Positions 50,343 through 55,224 of a DNA stretch of 64,000 nucleotides are shown piece after piece. Position 1 is the stretch's first letter. Each line of letters begins with the position of its first letter. Both the position numbers and the translations under genes were made by a program. The stretch lies in the NCBI GenBank assembly GCA_902595425.1, contig CACJPV010000003.1:78401-142400 (forward strand), written 5' to 3'. The notes under the pieces were generated by a model that saw only the letters and a program-made list of their open reading frames with translations, was not told the DNA's origin and searched no databases. Source of the DNA: an uncultured Alphaproteobacteria bacterium. GTDB taxonomy: Bacteria; Pseudomonadota; Alphaproteobacteria; HIMB59; GCA-002718135.

Positions 50343-50930
50343 ATGCATTTATTTTTTTCTACACCAATCTGGACATCAAAAATTGATAATTACGAGATAG
50401 TTAACCTTGAGATGCTAAAATACATAACCGATTTGCAAAAAAACGACCCTGATGGAATTGTTAAAAGTAACTTTAAAGGGTGGCACTCTAAAAATTTTGA
50501 TATGAAAAATGAACAAGCCAAAAACTTTATAGAGGCTATAAAAAACAATATTAATATAGCGCTTAATGACATGGGTTGGGATTTAGAAAAACAGACGGTC
50601 AAAATTAAAAGTTTATGGGCAATAATTAATAAGAAAGATGCTTGGAATCAAAAACACCACCACAGCAATAGTGACTTAAGTGCTGCCTATTATGTTGCTG
50701 CTCATGATAATTGTGGGGATATTGTGTTTTATGATCCTAGACCTGCGCCTGTTCATAATCACCCATTGTCTAAATCTCCAAATAATTTAAACGCCACAGT
50801 AAACTCAATAAAACCAGAGCCGGGCATGCTGGTTCTTTTTCCAAGCTATCTAGAGCATTCAGTTAATCCAAATTTATCAGATAAGGAAAGAATAGTTATA
50901 AGCTTTAATATTTCTTTAGAAAAAAACTAG
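50343..50930 (+). CDS. TIGR02466-type 2OG-Fe(II) oxygenase
   Basis: SN.KGWHS, W.IIN, HHH.NS.LSAAYYV, F.DPR, FPSYLEHSV, RIVISFN. Confidence 0.88.
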   Translation: MHLFFSTPIWTSKIDNYEIVNLEMLKYITDLQKNDPDGIVKSNFKGWHSKNFDMKNEQAKNFIEAIKNNINIALNDMGWDLEKQTVKIKSLWAIINKKDAWNQKHHHSNSDLSAAYYVAAHDNCGDIVFYDPRPAPVHNHPLSKSPNNLNATVNSIKPEPGMLVLFPSYLEHSVNPNLSDKERIVISFNISLEKN

Positions 50931-50956: not shown

Positions 50957-51682
50957 CTATTTCTTTTTAATTTCATTAAGAAAACTTTCTATATCTACGT
51001 TTTTTTCTTGAAGAGTATTGATAATTTTCTTTCCAATAATTCCTACAAAATGAAAAAAACTTGGATTTGGTATTTTTTTTGCATTATGCAAAAAGGGCAT
51101 ATAATTCCATTTATAATCTAGCTCTGAAAAAATTTCATTATTTTGAATTATAAATTCATTTAGTAGCATATTATCAGAATTTTTACCTTTTGCTCTTTTT
51201 TTTAGCTCTAATCTTTTAATCATATAATGATGAAGTTTTTTAGCCGTTACTCTGTCGCAAAAAGTAACACCTGAATTAAAATAGCCGTAAGAGCTGTCTA
51301 AACTGTTTACTTCCCTAAAAATATTTGATGAATTTCCCTCGGGTTCTCTAACATTCATCAAACCGCTAATTTTAGGAAGCGGTTCAGCATTTGGAAAAAT
51401 ATAGACATCATTATCTAAATAAATTGTATAATCATAATCGTTATCAAAATGAAAATATCTTTCAAAAGAGTAGTGTTTATTTTTAGAAGCTAAAAAATCA
51501 AAGTTTCCAAATTTTTTTTTATAAGTGCTTTCCTTCACTATTTTGTAGTCATACTTAAATTTTTTACAATAAGTCCTAACTGATGGTATAAAGATTTCTC
51601 TTATGGGATTAATTGTTTTGCTGTTTCCCCATTGGGTGCCATCTCCTATATCTATTTGTATAATTAAGAAGTTAGATTTCAT
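50957..51682 (-). CDS. GT-A (nucleotide-diphospho-sugar) glycosyltransferase
   Basis: YLDNDV (DxD), FNSGV, DN.LLN, KWNY, FFHFVG; start set at ATG 51682 because the TTG at 51751 lies inside the att remnant. Confidence 0.75.
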   Translation of the reverse strand: MKSNFLIIQIDIGDGTQWGNSKTINPIREIFIPSVRTYCKKFKYDYKIVKESTYKKKFGNFDFLASKNKHYSFERYFHFDNDYDYTIYLDNDVYIFPNAEPLPKISGLMNVREPEGNSSNIFREVNSLDSSYGYFNSGVTFCDRVTAKKLHHYMIKRLELKKRAKGKNSDNMLLNEFIIQNNEIFSELDYKWNYMPFLHNAKKIPNPSFFHFVGIIGKKIINTLQEKNVDIESFLNEIKKK

Positions 51683-51740
51683 AGAGTTTTTAACTATATC
51701 ATTAATCTTCCATAATTTGAAAAATTTCAAAACAAATGGA

Positions 51741-51761
51741 AACCTTGGCAAGGTTATTCGA
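51741..51761 (-). repeat. Degenerate att remnant: tRNA-Gly anticodon arm plus ATTCGA
   Basis: AACCTTGGCAAGGTTATTCGA is identical to 51900-51920; the first 15 bp match the tRNA anticodon stem-loop. Confidence 0.8.
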
Positions 51762-51822
51762 ATTCGAAATGCCCAAGAATATCTTGCTAAATGATGTTTT
51801 AAAAAACTTAGATTTTAGATGA

Positions 51823-51841
51823 AGTGCCGATATAGTGCCGA
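51823..51841. repeat. AGTGCCGA direct-repeat pair, 11-bp period (arm-type-like site, element 3)
   Basis: AGTGCCGA-TAT-AGTGCCGA. Confidence 0.7.
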
Positions 51842-51865
51842 CAGAATTTTAAATAACTTAAGATT

Positions 51866-51914
51866 TGGAGCGGGCGAAGGGATTCGAACCCTCGACTTCA
51901 ACCTTGGCAAGGTT
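51866..51914 (-). repeat. tRNA-Gly 3'-half duplication (att site, 49 bp)
   Basis: Identical to 55150-55198; lacks the D-arm and 5' acceptor strand. Confidence 0.95.
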
Positions 51915-51982
51915 ATTCGATACAAACTAACAAAGAGAATACCTTAAAAAATTATTTAAAATATTAGGAAATTATTAATCGA

Positions 51983-52001
51983 ACTTGGACGTACGTTGGA
52001 C
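51983..52001. repeat. TTGGAC direct-repeat pair, left end of element 2
   Basis: ACTTGGACGTACGTTGGAC, 18/19 identical to 52301-52319. Confidence 0.8.
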
Positions 52002-52051
52002 TTAAAAATATTAAATATATTAACATGTTGTCAGATTAATATATAAGTAAC

Positions 52052-52107
52052 TCGTCCTGATTTAGATACTCTAATTGCTGGGACAAAAAACAAAACGCTA
52101 AAGGAGA
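52052..52107 (+). promoter_or_regulatory. SAM-II-like riboswitch
   Basis: GTCC(P1)-TGATTT-...-CTCT-AA-TTGC-T-GGGAC(P1')-A-rich linker-GCTAAA-GGAG(SD)-5 nt-ATG reproduces the SAM-II pseudoknot landmarks; CTCT can pair with the SD. Confidence 0.75.
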
Positions 52108-52111
52108 CTAA

Positions 52112-52300
52112 ATGTTTAATTTTAAATATTATTTAGCTAATTCTGTTAAGGATTTTATAAAAAAAAGAGAACAGAAAGAAGGACTTAAAAATATCTTTTT
52201 TAAAAAATTAGATAAAAACTTTCTTGAACTGTCAAAAGAAGAACAAGTTCAAAGAATAGTTAAAATTTTAGAAAGTCAGGGATTTAAATTAAAGAAATAG
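52112..52300 (+). CDS. 62-aa basic orphan protein downstream of the SAM-II-like riboswitch
   Basis: Strong AAGGAG SD, ATG start, only ORF of element 2; TAG abuts the right repeat pair. Confidence 0.75.
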   Translation: MFNFKYYLANSVKDFIKKREQKEGLKNIFFKKLDKNFLELSKEEQVQRIVKILESQGFKLKK

Positions 52301-52319
52301 ACTTGGACGTATGTTGGAC
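52301..52319. repeat. TTGGAC direct-repeat pair, right end of element 2
   Basis: ACTTGGACGTATGTTGGAC, 11-bp period. Confidence 0.8.
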
Positions 52320-52344
52320 ACAAGTCATTCGTCCGCTTCAAATT

Positions 52345-52394
52345 TGGAGCGGGCGAAGGGATTCGAACCCTCGACTTCAACCTTGGCAAGGTTG
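52345..52394 (-). repeat. tRNA-Gly 3'-half duplication (att site, 50 bp)
   Basis: Identical to 55150-55199; identity ends at the base of the anticodon stem. Confidence 0.95.
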
Positions 52395-52449
52395 GGTTCA
52401 AGAATATAGATTTCCTTTGAAGCGTAACTAGTTTTTGCTGTCTTGCTAA

Positions 52450-52472
52450 ATTTCTGTCACAACTGAGTCACA
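52450..52472. repeat. TGTCACA direct-repeat pair, left end of element 1
   Basis: ATTTCTGTCACA-ACTG-AGTCACA; matches 55058-55080. Confidence 0.8.
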
Positions 52473-53330
52473 CTAAGAATTATCTTTAATAAATTTTTTT
52501 ATGATTTGTGCTTCTTTCAAAACTAACTTCTTATCATAAATTATATAGCTTCTTTCAATATTTTGACCAGCAGCATTTGATAGCCAGTTAAAACTTCCAC
52601 AAACAACATACTCATCATCACATATGAGTATTTTAGAATGGTTTTTGTATTCTGCTAAATATATTTTTCCCTTTAATTTATGCTCTTTGGCTTGCTGAAC
52701 TAACTTTCTTAAATCATTCTCAGCATTTAATTCATATTCTTTTTTTTGTTCATTATGATGTGAACTTCTATATCCATATCCAAGATATATATTAACACCT
52801 CTTTTAAGAGCCTCAGTAAGAGAAATTTTAAAATCCTCATTAATAACATATGAAGTTGCCGTCCCTGACAAAATACAAATACTACTTGTTGCCTGTCCAA
52901 GAGTATTAAAAAAGATTTGTCTGTGTTGAGATAAATTATTTAATATTTTTAAGTTTACTTTTTTATTTGCTTGAACATAATCACTGACTTCTTTGTTATC
53001 AATTCTATTTTTATCAGATATGAAATTTTCAATAATATTTTTTTGTTGTTGAATTTTTTTGTCTTTACCATCAAGCCAATTAACTATACCGTAACAAATA
53101 GTAAATGTTAATACTGCTTCAGCTAATTGAAAAAACCAAAGCTCTGAAAAATCTCTTATCTTTACTTTCCCAAAATATACTGAAATACCAAGTGTCCAAG
53201 AAATCCAAAATAAACTTATTAAAAAACCAAATACCTTTGATAGATTAAAACTATTAAAAAAAAACTTTCCGGCACTAAAACCAAAAATAATAGTAAGAAT
53301 TATTGTTGCCTGATAAAATAATGCAGTCAT
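52473..53330 (-). CDS. Membrane-anchored phospholipase D (HKD)/Nuc-like domain protein
   Basis: About 3 N-terminal TMs, short coiled coil, single HSKILICD-x6-GSFN motif with downstream N-x-E. Confidence 0.85.
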   Translation of the reverse strand: MTALFYQATIILTIIFGFSAGKFFFNSFNLSKVFGFLISLFWISWTLGISVYFGKVKIRDFSELWFFQLAEAVLTFTICYGIVNWLDGKDKKIQQQKNIIENFISDKNRIDNKEVSDYVQANKKVNLKILNNLSQHRQIFFNTLGQATSSICILSGTATSYVINEDFKISLTEALKRGVNIYLGYGYRSSHHNEQKKEYELNAENDLRKLVQQAKEHKLKGKIYLAEYKNHSKILICDDEYVVCGSFNWLSNAAGQNIERSYIIYDKKLVLKEAQIIKKFIKDNS

Positions 53331-53373
53331 TATTAAACACTATATTATCATTTTTTTAAAACTTAAAAAAATT

Positions 53374-54222
53374 TTATACCAAAGTATTATAAGCACTTGA
53401 AAAAAGAGATTTAAGTGAATCCCTAAACCATTCATAAACTGATGTGATATTAAGCTTATTAGAATGTTTTCTTACTAAAACTGCTATTATTAACCCAAGA
53501 ATCAATCCAAGCCAGACAGGGCCTCCAACAAATGAAGATATTCCCAAAAAAGAAAATAAACTTAAAGAACCTATTTTAGTGCCTTCTAAGAATTTTTTGG
53601 AAAATTTTTTCTTATTTTTCTCTAAATGAAAATGTCTACCTAGCATAATTATTGATATAATAACTGTAATTGGGTTACCTCCAATAGCTCCTGCCATCAT
53701 TAATGAAGAAACAAGGTCTCCAAATAACTTTGCATCTTTTTTATTCCAATTAAAAACAACACCTAAGACCCCTAAAGAAGATGCAATTAATTCAGAGCCA
53801 TTTAAAGTTTGAATGTCATAAAACCAGTCTTTTGGTATAAAAAATTTATCATGCAGAAAGATAGCAGCTTTATCATAACTATCTTTACTTAATGTATAAA
53901 ATGGTAGACCAGCATGTGTGTTGAAATCTTTAAAAAATGTTTTAACAAATGCTTCTAATTCTTGTTTTCTGCTATCATCTATTTTGACATTCTTTACAGT
54001 TTCCCACATTTCAAATGGTTGGTGTCCGTCAAAAAGTCTATGTTTCCATCCACCTATATGAGTAGCATTATATGCTGCATCAACAGCTTTATCATAAACA
54101 GTTGCTGAAGATTCAGTTAAAGAGCCAAACCAATTTTCAAATTTTCTGCTAAAATCAGATGCTAATAAACTATTAACCCAAATAGAGGTTTTATTAATAA
54201 TTTCAGATTTAATGCTTTTCAT
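53374..54222 (-). CDS. Hypothetical protein with HRLFDGH motif and C-terminal Gly-rich hydrophobic helices
   Basis: 282-aa ORF from ATG 54222; DKAVDAAYNATHIGGWKHRLFDGH segment; C-terminal hydrophobic hairpins. Confidence 0.75.
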   Translation of the reverse strand: MKSIKSEIINKTSIWVNSLLASDFSRKFENWFGSLTESSATVYDKAVDAAYNATHIGGWKHRLFDGHQPFEMWETVKNVKIDDSRKQELEAFVKTFFKDFNTHAGLPFYTLSKDSYDKAAIFLHDKFFIPKDWFYDIQTLNGSELIASSLGVLGVVFNWNKKDAKLFGDLVSSLMMAGAIGGNPITVIISIIMLGRHFHLEKNKKKFSKKFLEGTKIGSLSLFSFLGISSFVGGPVWLGLILGLIIAVLVRKHSNKLNITSVYEWFRDSLKSLFSSAYNTLV

Positions 54223-54320
54223 TATAGTCCCCAAAATAAAATTGTCACAAAAACACAAAACAGTCCAATAACAATTGAAATTCCAAACATAGCATAAAGA
54301 AATCGAATTAATTCTTGCAT
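54222..54320 (-). CDS. 32-aa single-TM peptide (absent from ORF track)
   Basis: MQELIRFLYAMFGISIVIGLFCVFVTILFWGL; ATG directly follows the upstream TAA and its own TAA overlaps the next ATG (TAATG). Confidence 0.65.
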   Translation of the reverse strand: MQELIRFLYAMFGISIVIGLFCVFVTILFWGL

Positions 54321-54998
54321 TTATCTAAACTTCAATTCAATTGTTTCATCAGCAACAGCGTATCCTTCTACTTTAATAAAAACGCTGTCACCTTCAATTT
54401 TATAATATTTAATCTTACCAGGCCAAACAGTTCCTGTTAGTGCAAAGTCTTTTACTGCTAAATTTTCCCCATCATAATTAAAAATATAATAATTAGCAGT
54501 ATTCATACAAGAAGAGCCACAACTGATATTGTAAAATACATAAACAAGGTAGTTATTATCATTTAACTTTACTATTGGATTATAAGTTAAGTACTCCGAC
54601 CATAAATCTTCCCCGCGATATTTATTAAAAGGTTGATTGGATATAATATTATTATGTTTGGAATAAAATGAGCTTAGATTTATAATTTCATCGAAACTAC
54701 TGTGCAAATCTTCTTCATAGGTATAGATAAAACGTGGTTCTAATTGTTCATGTATATAATAAAAAACATAAGGATGAATTCTTTTACCATTAAAAGACAT
54801 CATATCTATGTTGGCTCCATAATCAGCTTTAATATAATTTTCTCTGTAAACAGGAATGTATTCATCTCTTAGATAATCAATTAATGTAGGAATTTTAAAT
54901 AGGAGATATACAACGACGATTAAAGTAAGTGTGTATTGAATAAATTTTAGAATGAACCAATAAAGTGAATGAAAGAAAGAGGTTATGACATTAACCAT
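54321..54998 (-). CDS. Hypothetical N-terminally anchored, probably periplasmic protein
   Basis: 225-aa ORF, N-terminal hydrophobic segment, Tyr-rich, CGSSC motif. Confidence 0.7.
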   Translation of the reverse strand: MVNVITSFFHSLYWFILKFIQYTLTLIVVVYLLFKIPTLIDYLRDEYIPVYRENYIKADYGANIDMMSFNGKRIHPYVFYYIHEQLEPRFIYTYEEDLHSSFDEIINLSSFYSKHNNIISNQPFNKYRGEDLWSEYLTYNPIVKLNDNNYLVYVFYNISCGSSCMNTANYYIFNYDGENLAVKDFALTGTVWPGKIKYYKIEGDSVFIKVEGYAVADETIELKFR

Positions 54999-55057
54999 AC
55001 TTCTTTTAATCAGTTAAGTTTGTCATCATTATGAAATCAATATAAATCGAAGTTTTT

Positions 55058-55080
55058 ATTTCTGTCACACTGGTGTCACA
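55058..55080. repeat. TGTCACA direct-repeat pair, right end of element 1
   Basis: ATTTCTGTCACA-CTGG-TGTCACA, 11-bp period, about 70 bp from the tRNA CCA end. Confidence 0.8.
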
Positions 55081-55149
55081 ATAAGAATGTAAAATAAGAT
55101 ATTTTTGAAAAAAACTTAACAGACAAAAGAGAAGGTTTGTGGGAATACT

Positions 55150-55224
55150 TGGAGCGGGCGAAGGGATTCGAACCCTCGACTTCAACCTTGGCAAGGTTGC
55201 GCTCTACCCCTGAGCTACGCCCGC
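55150..55224 (-). tRNA. tRNA-Gly(GCC)
   Basis: GCGGGCGTAGCTCAGGGGTAGAGCGCAACCTTGCCAAGGTTGAAGTCGAGGGTTCGAATCCCTTCGCCCGCTCCA: full cloverleaf, anticodon GCC, encoded CCA. Confidence 0.98.

Follow-up and report, generated by a model that had tools for sequence, protein, structure and literature searches.

A tandem array of three integrase-less units with 11-nt-phased end repeats at tRNA-Gly(GCC) of an uncultured marine alphaproteobacterium

The tRNA-Gly locus and its three units

The window analyzed here is a 64,000-nt stretch (~28% GC) of contig C3 (142,919 nt), which belongs to the 39-contig draft assembly (1.49 Mb, 84% complete) of an uncultured alphaproteobacterium from the HIMB59 lineage. 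An intact tRNA-Gly(GCC) gene, the sole tRNA gene identified in the window by ARAGORN, is followed by partial copies of its own 3′ part, and these copies delimit three units of 2755, 430, and 110 nt, numbered 1 to 3 from the tRNA outward (Table 1). The attachment (att) copies extend from the encoded CCA end through the whole anticodon stem-loop of tRNA-Gly; the outermost one is a remnant composed of the anticodon arm and six further nucleotides (ATTCGA), which are also present at the boundary of unit 2. The units are flanked by direct repeats of part of a tRNA gene that is itself left intact, the arrangement by which tRNA-associated islands are recognized. The locus is interpreted below, with a probability of roughly 0.6, as a tandem array of three integrase-less cassettes, similar to cis-mobilizable elements (CIMEs) or to tycheposon remnants, that arm-binding integrases would have made.

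Each unit carries a word of its own, repeated directly with an 11-nt period and referred to here as an arm; units 1 and 2 have such a pair at both ends, and unit 3 has a single pair. An original prediction made for this stretch had described partial tRNA-Gly copies downstream of the tRNA, units of ~2.75, 0.43, and 0.11 kb, a separate phased repeat in each unit, and no integrase ORF (open reading frame). The copies were confirmed, the third being the anticodon arm plus 6 nt, and all of the words were found at their positions. No integrase-like stretch was detected in the three units by tblastn (nine integrase queries, E ≤ 0.01), and no gene in the whole assembly matched PF00589 (Phage_integrase) above the family cut-off. 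Since the words, the copies, and the absence of an integrase all check out, this description was right in every checkable point.

The cargo of unit 1 comprises three ORFs. The 285-aa PLD-like protein, which has a hydrophobic N-terminal region as read from its sequence, is similar to the PLD regions of MkoB, MkoC, and DrmC in PADLOC and accounts for the only PHROG matches in the units, namely to two families of unknown function. The 282-aa protein has no match in Pfam, PADLOC, or PHROG, and the 225-aa protein likewise belongs to no family in these three libraries. Contigs from four metagenome studies cover the unit 1 cargo with few differences. The left and right arm regions of this unit (52450-52498 and 55058-55106) are 73% identical over 49 nt.

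Fetched loci are designated below as Lnnn, the units of an array at such a locus as Lnnn_uN, and genomes as Gnnn. In unit 2, the stop codon of the only ORF lies 2 nt ahead of the right arm, and its 62-aa product has no family in Pfam, PADLOC, or PHROG. A metagenome scan returned six contigs that matched the right junction of unit 2, none of which contains an integrase. The independent metagenome contig L184 reproduces unit 2 with both junctions: it encodes an identical 62-aa protein, has the same spacing of 479 nt as the window, and adjoins a full tRNA, with unit 1 absent. TTGGAC arms carry five different cargo sets, four of which occur in other metagenome contigs. In three units that differ from one another, a conserved element of ~60 nt immediately precedes a small ORF, a different one in each case, namely in unit 2 of the window (Table 1), L055:9301-9379 (−), and L062:10405-10483 (−). 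It aligns over the full length of the SAM_alpha (SAM-II) model at 22.9–27.2 bits, below the gathering score of 36, and its predicted hairpin has no compensatory changes among the three sequences.

Unit 3 has an arm pair placed 67 nt from its left boundary and 24 nt from its right boundary, which are the usual left- and right-arm distances, respectively. Its word is also found in the 785-nt L093_u1 (G091) and in a ~3-kb unit in G015. The possibility that unit 3 arose from an L093_u1-like unit by deletion between the arms gained no support, as the two have only the arm in common (29 nt, 90% identity).

Table 1. Features of the tRNA-Gly array and its surroundings (positions in the window)
Feature	Position	Strand	Remarks
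tRNA-Gly(GCC), intact target gene	55150-55224	-	ARAGORN; Rfam tRNA 70.9 bits
Proximal att copy, 3′ part of the intact tRNA-Gly	55150-55199	-	Within tRNA gene
Unit 1, TGTCACA arm class	52395-55149	.	2755/2756 nt; without integrase; bounded by att copies
Unit 1 right arm	55063-55080	+	TGTCACA at 55063-55069 and 55074-55080; ends 69 nt before tRNA 3′ end
225-aa cargo ORF	54321-54998	-	Hydrophobic N-terminus (sequence reading)
282-aa cargo ORF	53374-54222	-	Uncharacterized family; 83 metagenome homologs, none named
285-aa cargo ORF, PLD-like domain	52473-53330	-	Pfam PLDc_2 5e-12, PLDc 1.3e-4
Unit 1 left arm	52455-52472	+	TGTCACA at 52455-52461, AGTCACA 11 nt on (GTCACA of second repeat at 52467-52472); 61 nt from att
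att copy between units 2 and 1	52345-52394	-	50 nt, exact; tRNA 3′ part
Unit 2, TTGGAC arm class	51915-52344	.	430 nt; one 62-aa ORF; bounded by att copies
Unit 2 right arm	52303-52319	+	TTGGAC at 52303-52308 and 52314-52319; ends 25 nt before att copy
62-aa ORF	52112-52300	+	Preceded by sub-threshold SAM-II-like element
SAM-II-like element	52044-52122	+	~60 nt conserved
Unit 2 left arm	51985-52001	+	TTGGAC at 51985-51990 and 51996-52001; 70 nt from att copy
att copy between units 3 and 2	51866-51914	-	49 nt, exact; tRNA 3′ part
Unit 3	51756-51865	.	110 nt; no ORF; single arm pair; from repeat positions
Unit 3 arm	51823-51841	+	AGTGCCGA at 51823-51830 and 51834-51841; 11-nt period
Distal att remnant	51741-51761	-	21 nt; 15-nt anticodon arm plus ATTCGA, as at 51900-51920
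ORF without family	50957-51751	-	Distal to array; 5′ end extends to att remnant
2OG-Fe(II) oxygenase gene (PF13759)	50343-50930	+	Distal to array

Two genes lie distal to the array, an ORF without family and a 2OG-Fe(II) oxygenase gene. The oxygenase gene was found again, at 67–70% identity, on the distal side of four related arrays, and the region distal to the array may be the cargo of an older island.

Arrays, phased words, and integrases across the family

The order is represented by 187 genomes in two families, the host's own family (116 genomes) and a sister family (71 genomes), and relatives were probed with a 36-nt piece of the tRNA-Gly 3′ part at no more than one mismatch. At least one copy was found in 94 of the 116 family genomes, and 54 of them, the host's included, hold 2–5 copies, which are located on one contig and one strand in all cases but one; two or more copies occur in just 3 of the 71 genomes of the sister family. 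Forty of the 53 relatives with at least two copies, together with the window, provided a set of 41 arrays with 67 units. The full tRNA is the rightmost copy in every one of these arrays, including that of the window. Most partial copies stop 0–3 nt past the anticodon stem, and five reach 17–24 nt further. Units measure from 110 to 13,739 nt, 40 of the 67 being no longer than 1.5 kb, and most of the small ones consist of one ORF. Judging from sequence motifs and family names, the cargo of small units presumably includes a sulfotransferase-like protein, an 86-aa protein, an HNH-type protein, and secreted proteins or lipoproteins, to which the same reading by eye would add an MFS transporter and an FkbM-type methyltransferase; only some of these were run against Pfam.

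When the 23 tRNAs of the host genome were compared by BLAST with its own assembly, two more loci of the same kind were recognized. At tRNA-Arg(ACG) (C1:258435-258511), copies of 53 and 43 nt from the tRNA 3′ part bound units of 1.03 and 3.2 kb in an array spanning C1:254159-258511. The tRNA-proximal unit of this array has CAAACGG[C/G]ACAC at both ends, and the word AAACGGCAC of a tRNA-Arg unit in the host genome is found in L205 (G050) beside an integrase fragment. At tRNA-Leu(CAA) (C3:3562-3646), a 50-nt copy of the tRNA 5′ half is located 1.37 kb upstream, along with ~35 nt of upstream similarity, and the unit of the resulting array (C3:2193-3646) has the phased words GACGCC-N5-GATGCC and GACGCC-N5-TACGCC at its ends.

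The phasing of the repeats was measured in 160-nt windows across the 41 arrays, counting any exact 6-mer with at least two G/C that is repeated at an offset of 11 nt. Such 6-mers are present in 98 of 132 unit-end windows compared with 25 of 865 interior windows, while each of the other offsets from 6 to 16 nt occurs in 0–3.8% of the end windows; the 11-nt phasing far exceeds chance. The repeats are located ~58–81 nt inside the left boundary and ~41–87 nt inside the right boundary of the units. Among the 37 units whose two ends both have good arms, the left word agrees with the right one (at least 6 of 8) in 30, as opposed to 175 of 1332 control pairs, in which the left arm of one unit was compared with the right arm of another. 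By exact core pairs, 57 of the 67 units sort into ~15 word classes, leaving 10 units outside. The classes include TGTCCC (13 units), TGTCACA (11), GGCTAC (9), GTGGGAC (5), and TGTCGGA (4), as well as GGAGCGT, GTGCCGA, ACTACTGC, and TTGGAC. This diversity agrees with the earlier suggestion that several integrase specificities act at one tRNA; for units 2 and 3, a cognate integrase was not found in the family genomes or the metagenome contigs.

Scanning of the family with PF00589 revealed integrases inside the tRNA-Gly arrays of nine genomes, and an integrase gene beside an att end, absent from the window units, is present in 9 of the 67 array units. Six TGTCACA units of 5–14 kb carry, at their distal end, a PF00589 integrase of 314–324 aa. 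These integrases are 79–94% identical to one another, and their ATG is located 8 nt after a left arm that reads TGTCACAAC[T/A]GTGTCACAAGGAGA; the same islands carry, among other cargo, restriction-modification genes of types I and III and a DndB-like gene. Over its right-hand 90 nt, unit 1 of the window shows 78–90% identity with the corresponding ends of integrase-bearing units in relatives. Therefore, unit 1 is an integrase-less member of the TGTCACA class, as are L085_u1, which keeps ~10 integrase codons, L071_u1, L073_u2, and L076_u1. Three integrases of another type (type B, 333–339 aa) are located at the tRNA-proximal end of their units; they are ~52% identical among themselves and 35% identical to the 314–324-aa type, and the word found between att and the start codon is a different one for each of them. 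One integrase-bearing unit, L059_u1, also encodes an 807-aa protein with DUF5906, a domain of primase-helicase proteins, so this unit may replicate like a satellite or a tycheposon.

Twenty further integrase loci of the family were compared, among them eight full-length integrases. Seven of the eight have an 11-nt-phased word no more than 70 nt upstream of their start, a different one in each case; at L187, no phased word was found within 70 nt upstream of the integrase start codon. The eight adjoin tRNA-Arg, tRNA-Leu(CAA), tRNA-Met, or tRNA-Gly, or no tRNA in the stretch fetched, and phased repeats also flank integrases at two tRNA-Gln loci and at tRNA-Leu(TAA). In total, 15 of 17 tyrosine integrases, associated with six different tRNAs, have phased repeats 8–55 nt upstream of the start codon. 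Pairs of integrases with at least 60% identity in their first 60 residues have their word in common (a mean of 6.9–7.0 of 9 positions), and more distant pairs do not, with agreement at 4.0–4.8 of 9 positions. Since every integrase lineage uses an arm word of its own, the word marks the specificity class to which a cassette belongs. Whatever the word, a TTCTAGAAAGTGAGAA-like stretch lies between the arms and the start codon of type-B integrases (L057, L059, L186, L191, L194, L196, L201, and L202); it may be a common ribosome-binding or operator region.

In the attachment sites of lambda-type heterobivalent integrases, the core is flanked on both sides by closely spaced direct repeats ~60–90 bp away, and the integrases themselves have an extra N-terminal segment ahead of the core-binding domain. 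A profile of nine integrases aligns with lambda Int (chain residues 70–338) from position 58 onward, therefore leaving ~57 N-terminal residues where lambda Int has its arm-binding domain. As in lambda-type attP sites, one arm here overlaps the upstream region of the integrase gene, and the KplE1 integrase IntS is reportedly self-regulated via such arm sites. In contrast to the lambda type, there are only two repeats per arm, and no excisionase or host-factor sites were identified. Overall, the phased repeats appear to behave as integrase-specific arm-type sites, as had been proposed from the window. The same layout upstream of 15 of 17 integrases and the different word in each lineage support this proposal, in which binding of the arms by integrase is putative.

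The proposal that phages or satellites mobilize the units fared differently, as neither IMG/VR nor INPHARED yielded a tRNA half combined with these words. In IMG/VR, the exact 48-nt half matched one unrelated prophage (62% GC), where it stands beside a full tRNA. The arm patterns of units 1 and 2 had no matches in IMG/VR, and the 21 matches of the unit 3 pattern, none of which has a tRNA part, were taken as chance. INPHARED yielded no near match of the tRNA half, and a distant search gave only phage tRNA-Gly genes. With the integrase profile, six loci of 28–35% identity were obtained from IMG/VR, and genome contigs gave distant relatives in other Proteobacteria, with at most 38% identity among the matches listed. 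A phage or satellite origin of the units was rejected, given that searches of IMG/VR and INPHARED yielded no matching attP and no close integrases, and that no phage structural or packaging genes were seen. The integrases that were found sit on small chromosomal islands with restriction-modification and other cargo, in one case with a primase-helicase-like gene.

Origin, decay, and exchange of the cassettes

The anatomy of the array and its link to integrases are firm, and the interpretation that the units entered tRNA-Gly by site-specific integration, in its anticodon-arm region, is supported. Under this interpretation, each cassette would have entered as a circle with an attachment site of ~180–220 bp, composed of a copy of the tRNA 3′ part, a degenerate spacer resembling the tRNA 5′ half, and, on each side, a pair of direct repeats spaced by one 11-nt helical turn. 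The arm repeats would be bound by a tyrosine integrase that has an additional N-terminal domain, with strand exchange in the anticodon loop or beside it. The tRNA gene would then be completed by the incoming copy, and the displaced native 3′ part would move outward with the older cassettes, making unit 3 the oldest and unit 1 the newest. The autonomous members of the cassette families would be islands of 5–14 kb, with an integrase of 314–339 aa next to one arm. Integrase-less members would arise from them by internal deletion and keep both att/arm ends, which corresponds to the definition of a CIME. They would spread between genomes as integrase-less modules, the integrase being most likely supplied in trans by an incoming cognate island; such mobilization in trans is plausible.

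Various stages of decay are seen among the 67 units, of which 9 have a full integrase, 5 retain N-terminal stubs of 45–119 aa, and 53 have no match. In five GTGGGAC-class units, the leftmost of L063, L065, L066, L072, and L090, the left arm is followed immediately by a second, complete tRNA-Ser(TGA) gene, and TGTCCC-class units have 5′ pieces of tRNA-Ser(TGA) that are cut at different points (L056_u2, L084_u1, L074_u1, L092_u2, L065_u1, and L087_u1). The tRNA-Ser(TGA) gene of the host genome lies elsewhere, at C7:4016-4105, in an ordinary context. The tRNA-Ser pieces were considered as a second att site and rejected as such: their ends vary and are not at the anticodon loop, and deletion fits better. 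At the right ends of L063_u2, L065_u4, L066_u2, and L072_u2, a degenerate TGTCCCC-type arm is located inside an intact GTGGGAC arm, and the sulfotransferase-like cargo of these units is ~90% identical to that of TGTCCCC-class units. They look like the fusion, or re-framing, of one cassette by the ends of another class. Thus, the stubs, the cut tRNA-Ser copies, the nested arms, and the truncated distal att copy indicate that internal deletion and fusion are at work, and att and arm ends are mostly kept through both. Integrase-bearing full versions in relatives, which the original prediction had named as evidence against itself and for decayed prophages, exist at the same site for the class of unit 1, and units 2 and 3 have no known autonomous relative. 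Considering the integrase-bearing relatives, the stubs, and the truncated tRNA-Ser copies, some of what is seen here is decay through internal deletion.

Signs of exchange come from comparison of the units with their surroundings. Two unit families recur, one of ~1240 bp in 11 genomes and one of ~510–550 bp in 9 genomes, and the identity of units is decoupled from that of a 1.3-kb conserved flank. Identities in the unit and in the flank are 98.3% and 84.1%, respectively, for L078_u1 and L091_u1, 98.6% and 83.3% for L061_u2 and L083_u1, and 97.0% and 83.3% for L064_u3 and L067_u1; the reverse case is L059_u3 and L072_u2, with 73.6% in the unit and 98.2% in the flank. More generally, recurring small one-gene units are 96–99% identical where flanks are 83–84% identical. 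Members of the two families occur in both orders: namely, L063 has units of 1270 and then 530 nt next to the tRNA, and L067 has units of 551 and then 1238 nt. L184 amounts to the array of the window minus unit 1. Transfer of nonautonomous units as modules, as originally suggested, is borne out by the decoupled identities and by L184, and the comparison across strains that was proposed for gain, loss, and reordering revealed presence or absence exactly at the att boundary and both orders of the two families.

Several observations weigh against the cassette interpretation. In the window, the distal att remnant is a truncated copy that lacks 34 nt of the tRNA 3′ end. The flanks of the unit 1 left arm resemble the right-arm type of L060 and L062, not the integrase-proximal left arm, and simple deletion does not explain such a right-arm-like left arm. 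The host assembly, which is 84% complete, has no PF00589 match above cut-off, and neither the 116 genomes nor the six metagenome contigs yielded an integrase with TTGGAC or AGTGCCGA arms. No cognate integrase was found in the genomes (55–91% complete) of nine integrase-less TGTCACA and TGTCGGA units; therefore, a resident helper is not the rule. The rank correlation between integrase N-termini and words is weak (Spearman 0.18 over 120 pairs, which are not independent), and matches of the N-termini to Pfam Arm-DNA-bind_4, obtained for four of six, are all below cut-off. RecA-dependent exchange via the identical repeats of 49–51 nt may also take place. Finally, a search for circular junctions, suggested in the original prediction, covered contigs from four metagenome runs; these contigs break at repeats, and neither a circular junction nor a clean excision joint appeared in them. 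Two joints that were seen, 52472/55104 and 55182/52340, most probably stem from related arms or repeats.

Some of the same evidence would fit an array of dead remnants, in which the units are fossils of autonomous islands that lost their integrase by deletion and never move now, with arms that are recent or present by chance. The integrase stubs in five units and the 10-codon stub in L085_u1, the tRNA-Ser copies truncated at different points, the truncated distal att copy of the window, and the failure to find an integrase in the host assembly, a cognate resident integrase for the nine integrase-less units, or a circle junction all agree with this view. It is nevertheless judged unlikely. Fossils would not be expected to include units that have the same boundaries and 96–99% identity between flanks of 83–84% identity, in permuted order, nor arms that still match between the two ends of a unit, as in 30 of 37 units, around interiors that have been heavily reshuffled. 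One arm class also occurs with five cargo sets, and arrays with and without unit 1 differ exactly at the att boundary.

The decoupled transfer and the permuted order could also have arisen if, after a first site-specific insertion, cassettes were exchanged without any integrase, by RecA-dependent recombination between the 49–51-nt tRNA repeats or flanking homology following DNA uptake. Identical repeats of ~50 nt flank every unit and are common to all arrays, and helpers are absent from most genomes. As a full account this is improbable, more so than dead remnants: it leaves unexplained the matched 11-nt-phased words at the ends of integrase-less units and the identity of these words with those of integrase lineages. 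The RecA mechanism is compatible with site-specific integration, and the two are not exclusive.

A third alternative, that one resident recombinase captures all cassettes at tRNA-Gly in the manner of an integron, would require a candidate such as the conserved divergent tyrosine recombinase of 352 aa encoded at L207:1441-2499 (G079), which scores far below the XerC and XerD cut-offs. Of the 116 genomes, 92 have a PF00589 match, and most of these contain one recombinase of this type (open frame of ~330–385 aa). The G079 copy is located among housekeeping-type genes, its neighbors presumably encoding a sirtuin-type deacetylase and an MlrC-type peptidase (judged by eye, with no family-library run), and most cassettes hold one gene. 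This capture model is very improbable, as arm words vary from cassette to cassette along with the integrase lineages encoded by the elements, the recombinase is not beside the array and was not found in the host assembly (84% complete), and the recombination sites are tRNA parts, with no attC-like hairpins. An assembly artefact, conceivable in a draft of 39 contigs, has a negligible probability: the repeats are short (49–50 nt) in a contig of 142,919 nt, 53 related genomes have the same kind of array, four studies cover the cargo of unit 1, and L184 independently holds unit 2 with both junctions.

Known systems and significance for streamlined marine bacteria

In the CIME/accretion model, as presented in the available part of PMC5704250, att-flanked elements without an integrase stand in tandem at the 3′ end of a tRNA gene, the Streptococcus elements of the ICESt1 type being an example; CIMEs arise there by decay, after which a newcomer integrates into the regenerated site. 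To the extent that this text describes CIMEs, the units of the window are alike in that they keep attL and attR, have no integration or transfer genes, and stand in tandem at a tRNA. They differ in that up to five units occupy one tRNA, with ~15 arm-word classes at a single site, in that many units are single-gene segments of 0.1–1.3 kb, and in that no conjugative machinery was seen in the host, a streamlined marine alphaproteobacterium. Mobilization by a functional neighbor, as for CIMEs, is putative here, the indirect evidence being transfer decoupled from the flanks and permuted order.

Tycheposons of Prochlorococcus, in the portion of the preprint 10.1101/2020.12.28.424599 that was available, include tandem elements separated by partial tRNAs and remnants with fragmented integrases. 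According to that portion, they share with the present arrays a streamlined marine host and integrase-bearing cargo elements beside tRNA genes, and some carry primase or helicase genes, comparable to the DUF5906 protein in L059_u1; the same portion makes no mention of "arm-type", SAR11, or Pelagibacter. Unlike tycheposons, the units described here are mostly integrase-less, compact, and tagged by phased repeats, and they belong to a different host lineage. A tycheposon combines an integrase with a replication module; the window units have neither, and L059_u1 has an integrase together with DUF5906.

Closer to the present host in habitat, the accessible part of a SAR11 study (PMC11796062) reports four islands with partial tRNA repeats, which are interpreted there as cassette insertion, and only one integrase; in contrast to the arrays analyzed here, tandem multi-unit arrays, arm repeats, specificity classes, and integrase-bearing relatives are not described in that part. 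A Pelagibacter preprint, as far as its text was available, proposes tRNA-anchored insertion without att-level detail, and the part of a pelagiphage preprint (10.1101/410191) that could be compared reports integration into tRNA-Cys, tRNA-Leu, and tRNA-Arg, not tRNA-Gly. Phased arm repeats or word classes are not mentioned in the parts of the CIME, tycheposon, SAR11, Pelagibacter, and pelagiphage works that were compared.

The locus resembles integrons in some respects and departs from them in others, and an earlier comparison of the locus with an integron can be qualified accordingly. An integron consists of intI with attI and a promoter next to the cassette array, with attC sites on the cassettes. 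Similar to integron cassettes, the units are mostly single-gene, have little spare sequence, stand in tandem at a fixed platform with the newest unit next to it, and vary in content between strains. Unlike an integron, the array has no intI beside it, no attI, and no attC hairpins, and many recombinase specificities take the place of one; neither the window nor the assembly has a PF00589 gene, and the boundaries are tRNA copies, that is, direct and not palindromic repeats. A wider hypothesis, to be held tentatively and at less than even odds, is that tRNA-Gly(GCC) is a shared docking platform with an integron-like mode of working, at which ~15 or more diverged arm-binding integrases, encoded by a minority of autonomous islands, would move single-gene cassettes in trans; these cassettes would have no more than a tRNA-half core and two class-specific arm sites, and the word, as an address label, would determine the integrase able to move each of them. 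What appears to be new is that one tRNA serves many specificity classes, which can be told apart by their 11-nt-phased words, along with compact one-gene cassettes that keep only their recombination signals and whose words are paired with integrase lineages.

Streamlined marine bacteria have very large pangenomes and almost no recognizable mobile elements. As to how they exchange genes, the tRNA-Gly locus and its relatives provide a testable answer at base-pair resolution, namely a fixed tRNA platform, compact cassettes, and a readable arm-word label. If mobilization in trans is false, the arrays still record the stepwise decay of islands into cargo. If it is true, arm words would pair cassettes with their helper integrases directly from metagenomes and would supply orthogonal integrase/att pairs, all directed at a single site. 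Under the wider hypothesis, the similar arrays at tRNA-Arg and tRNA-Leu in this genome suggest that gene flow in streamlined marine bacteria without classical mobile elements could largely follow this route.

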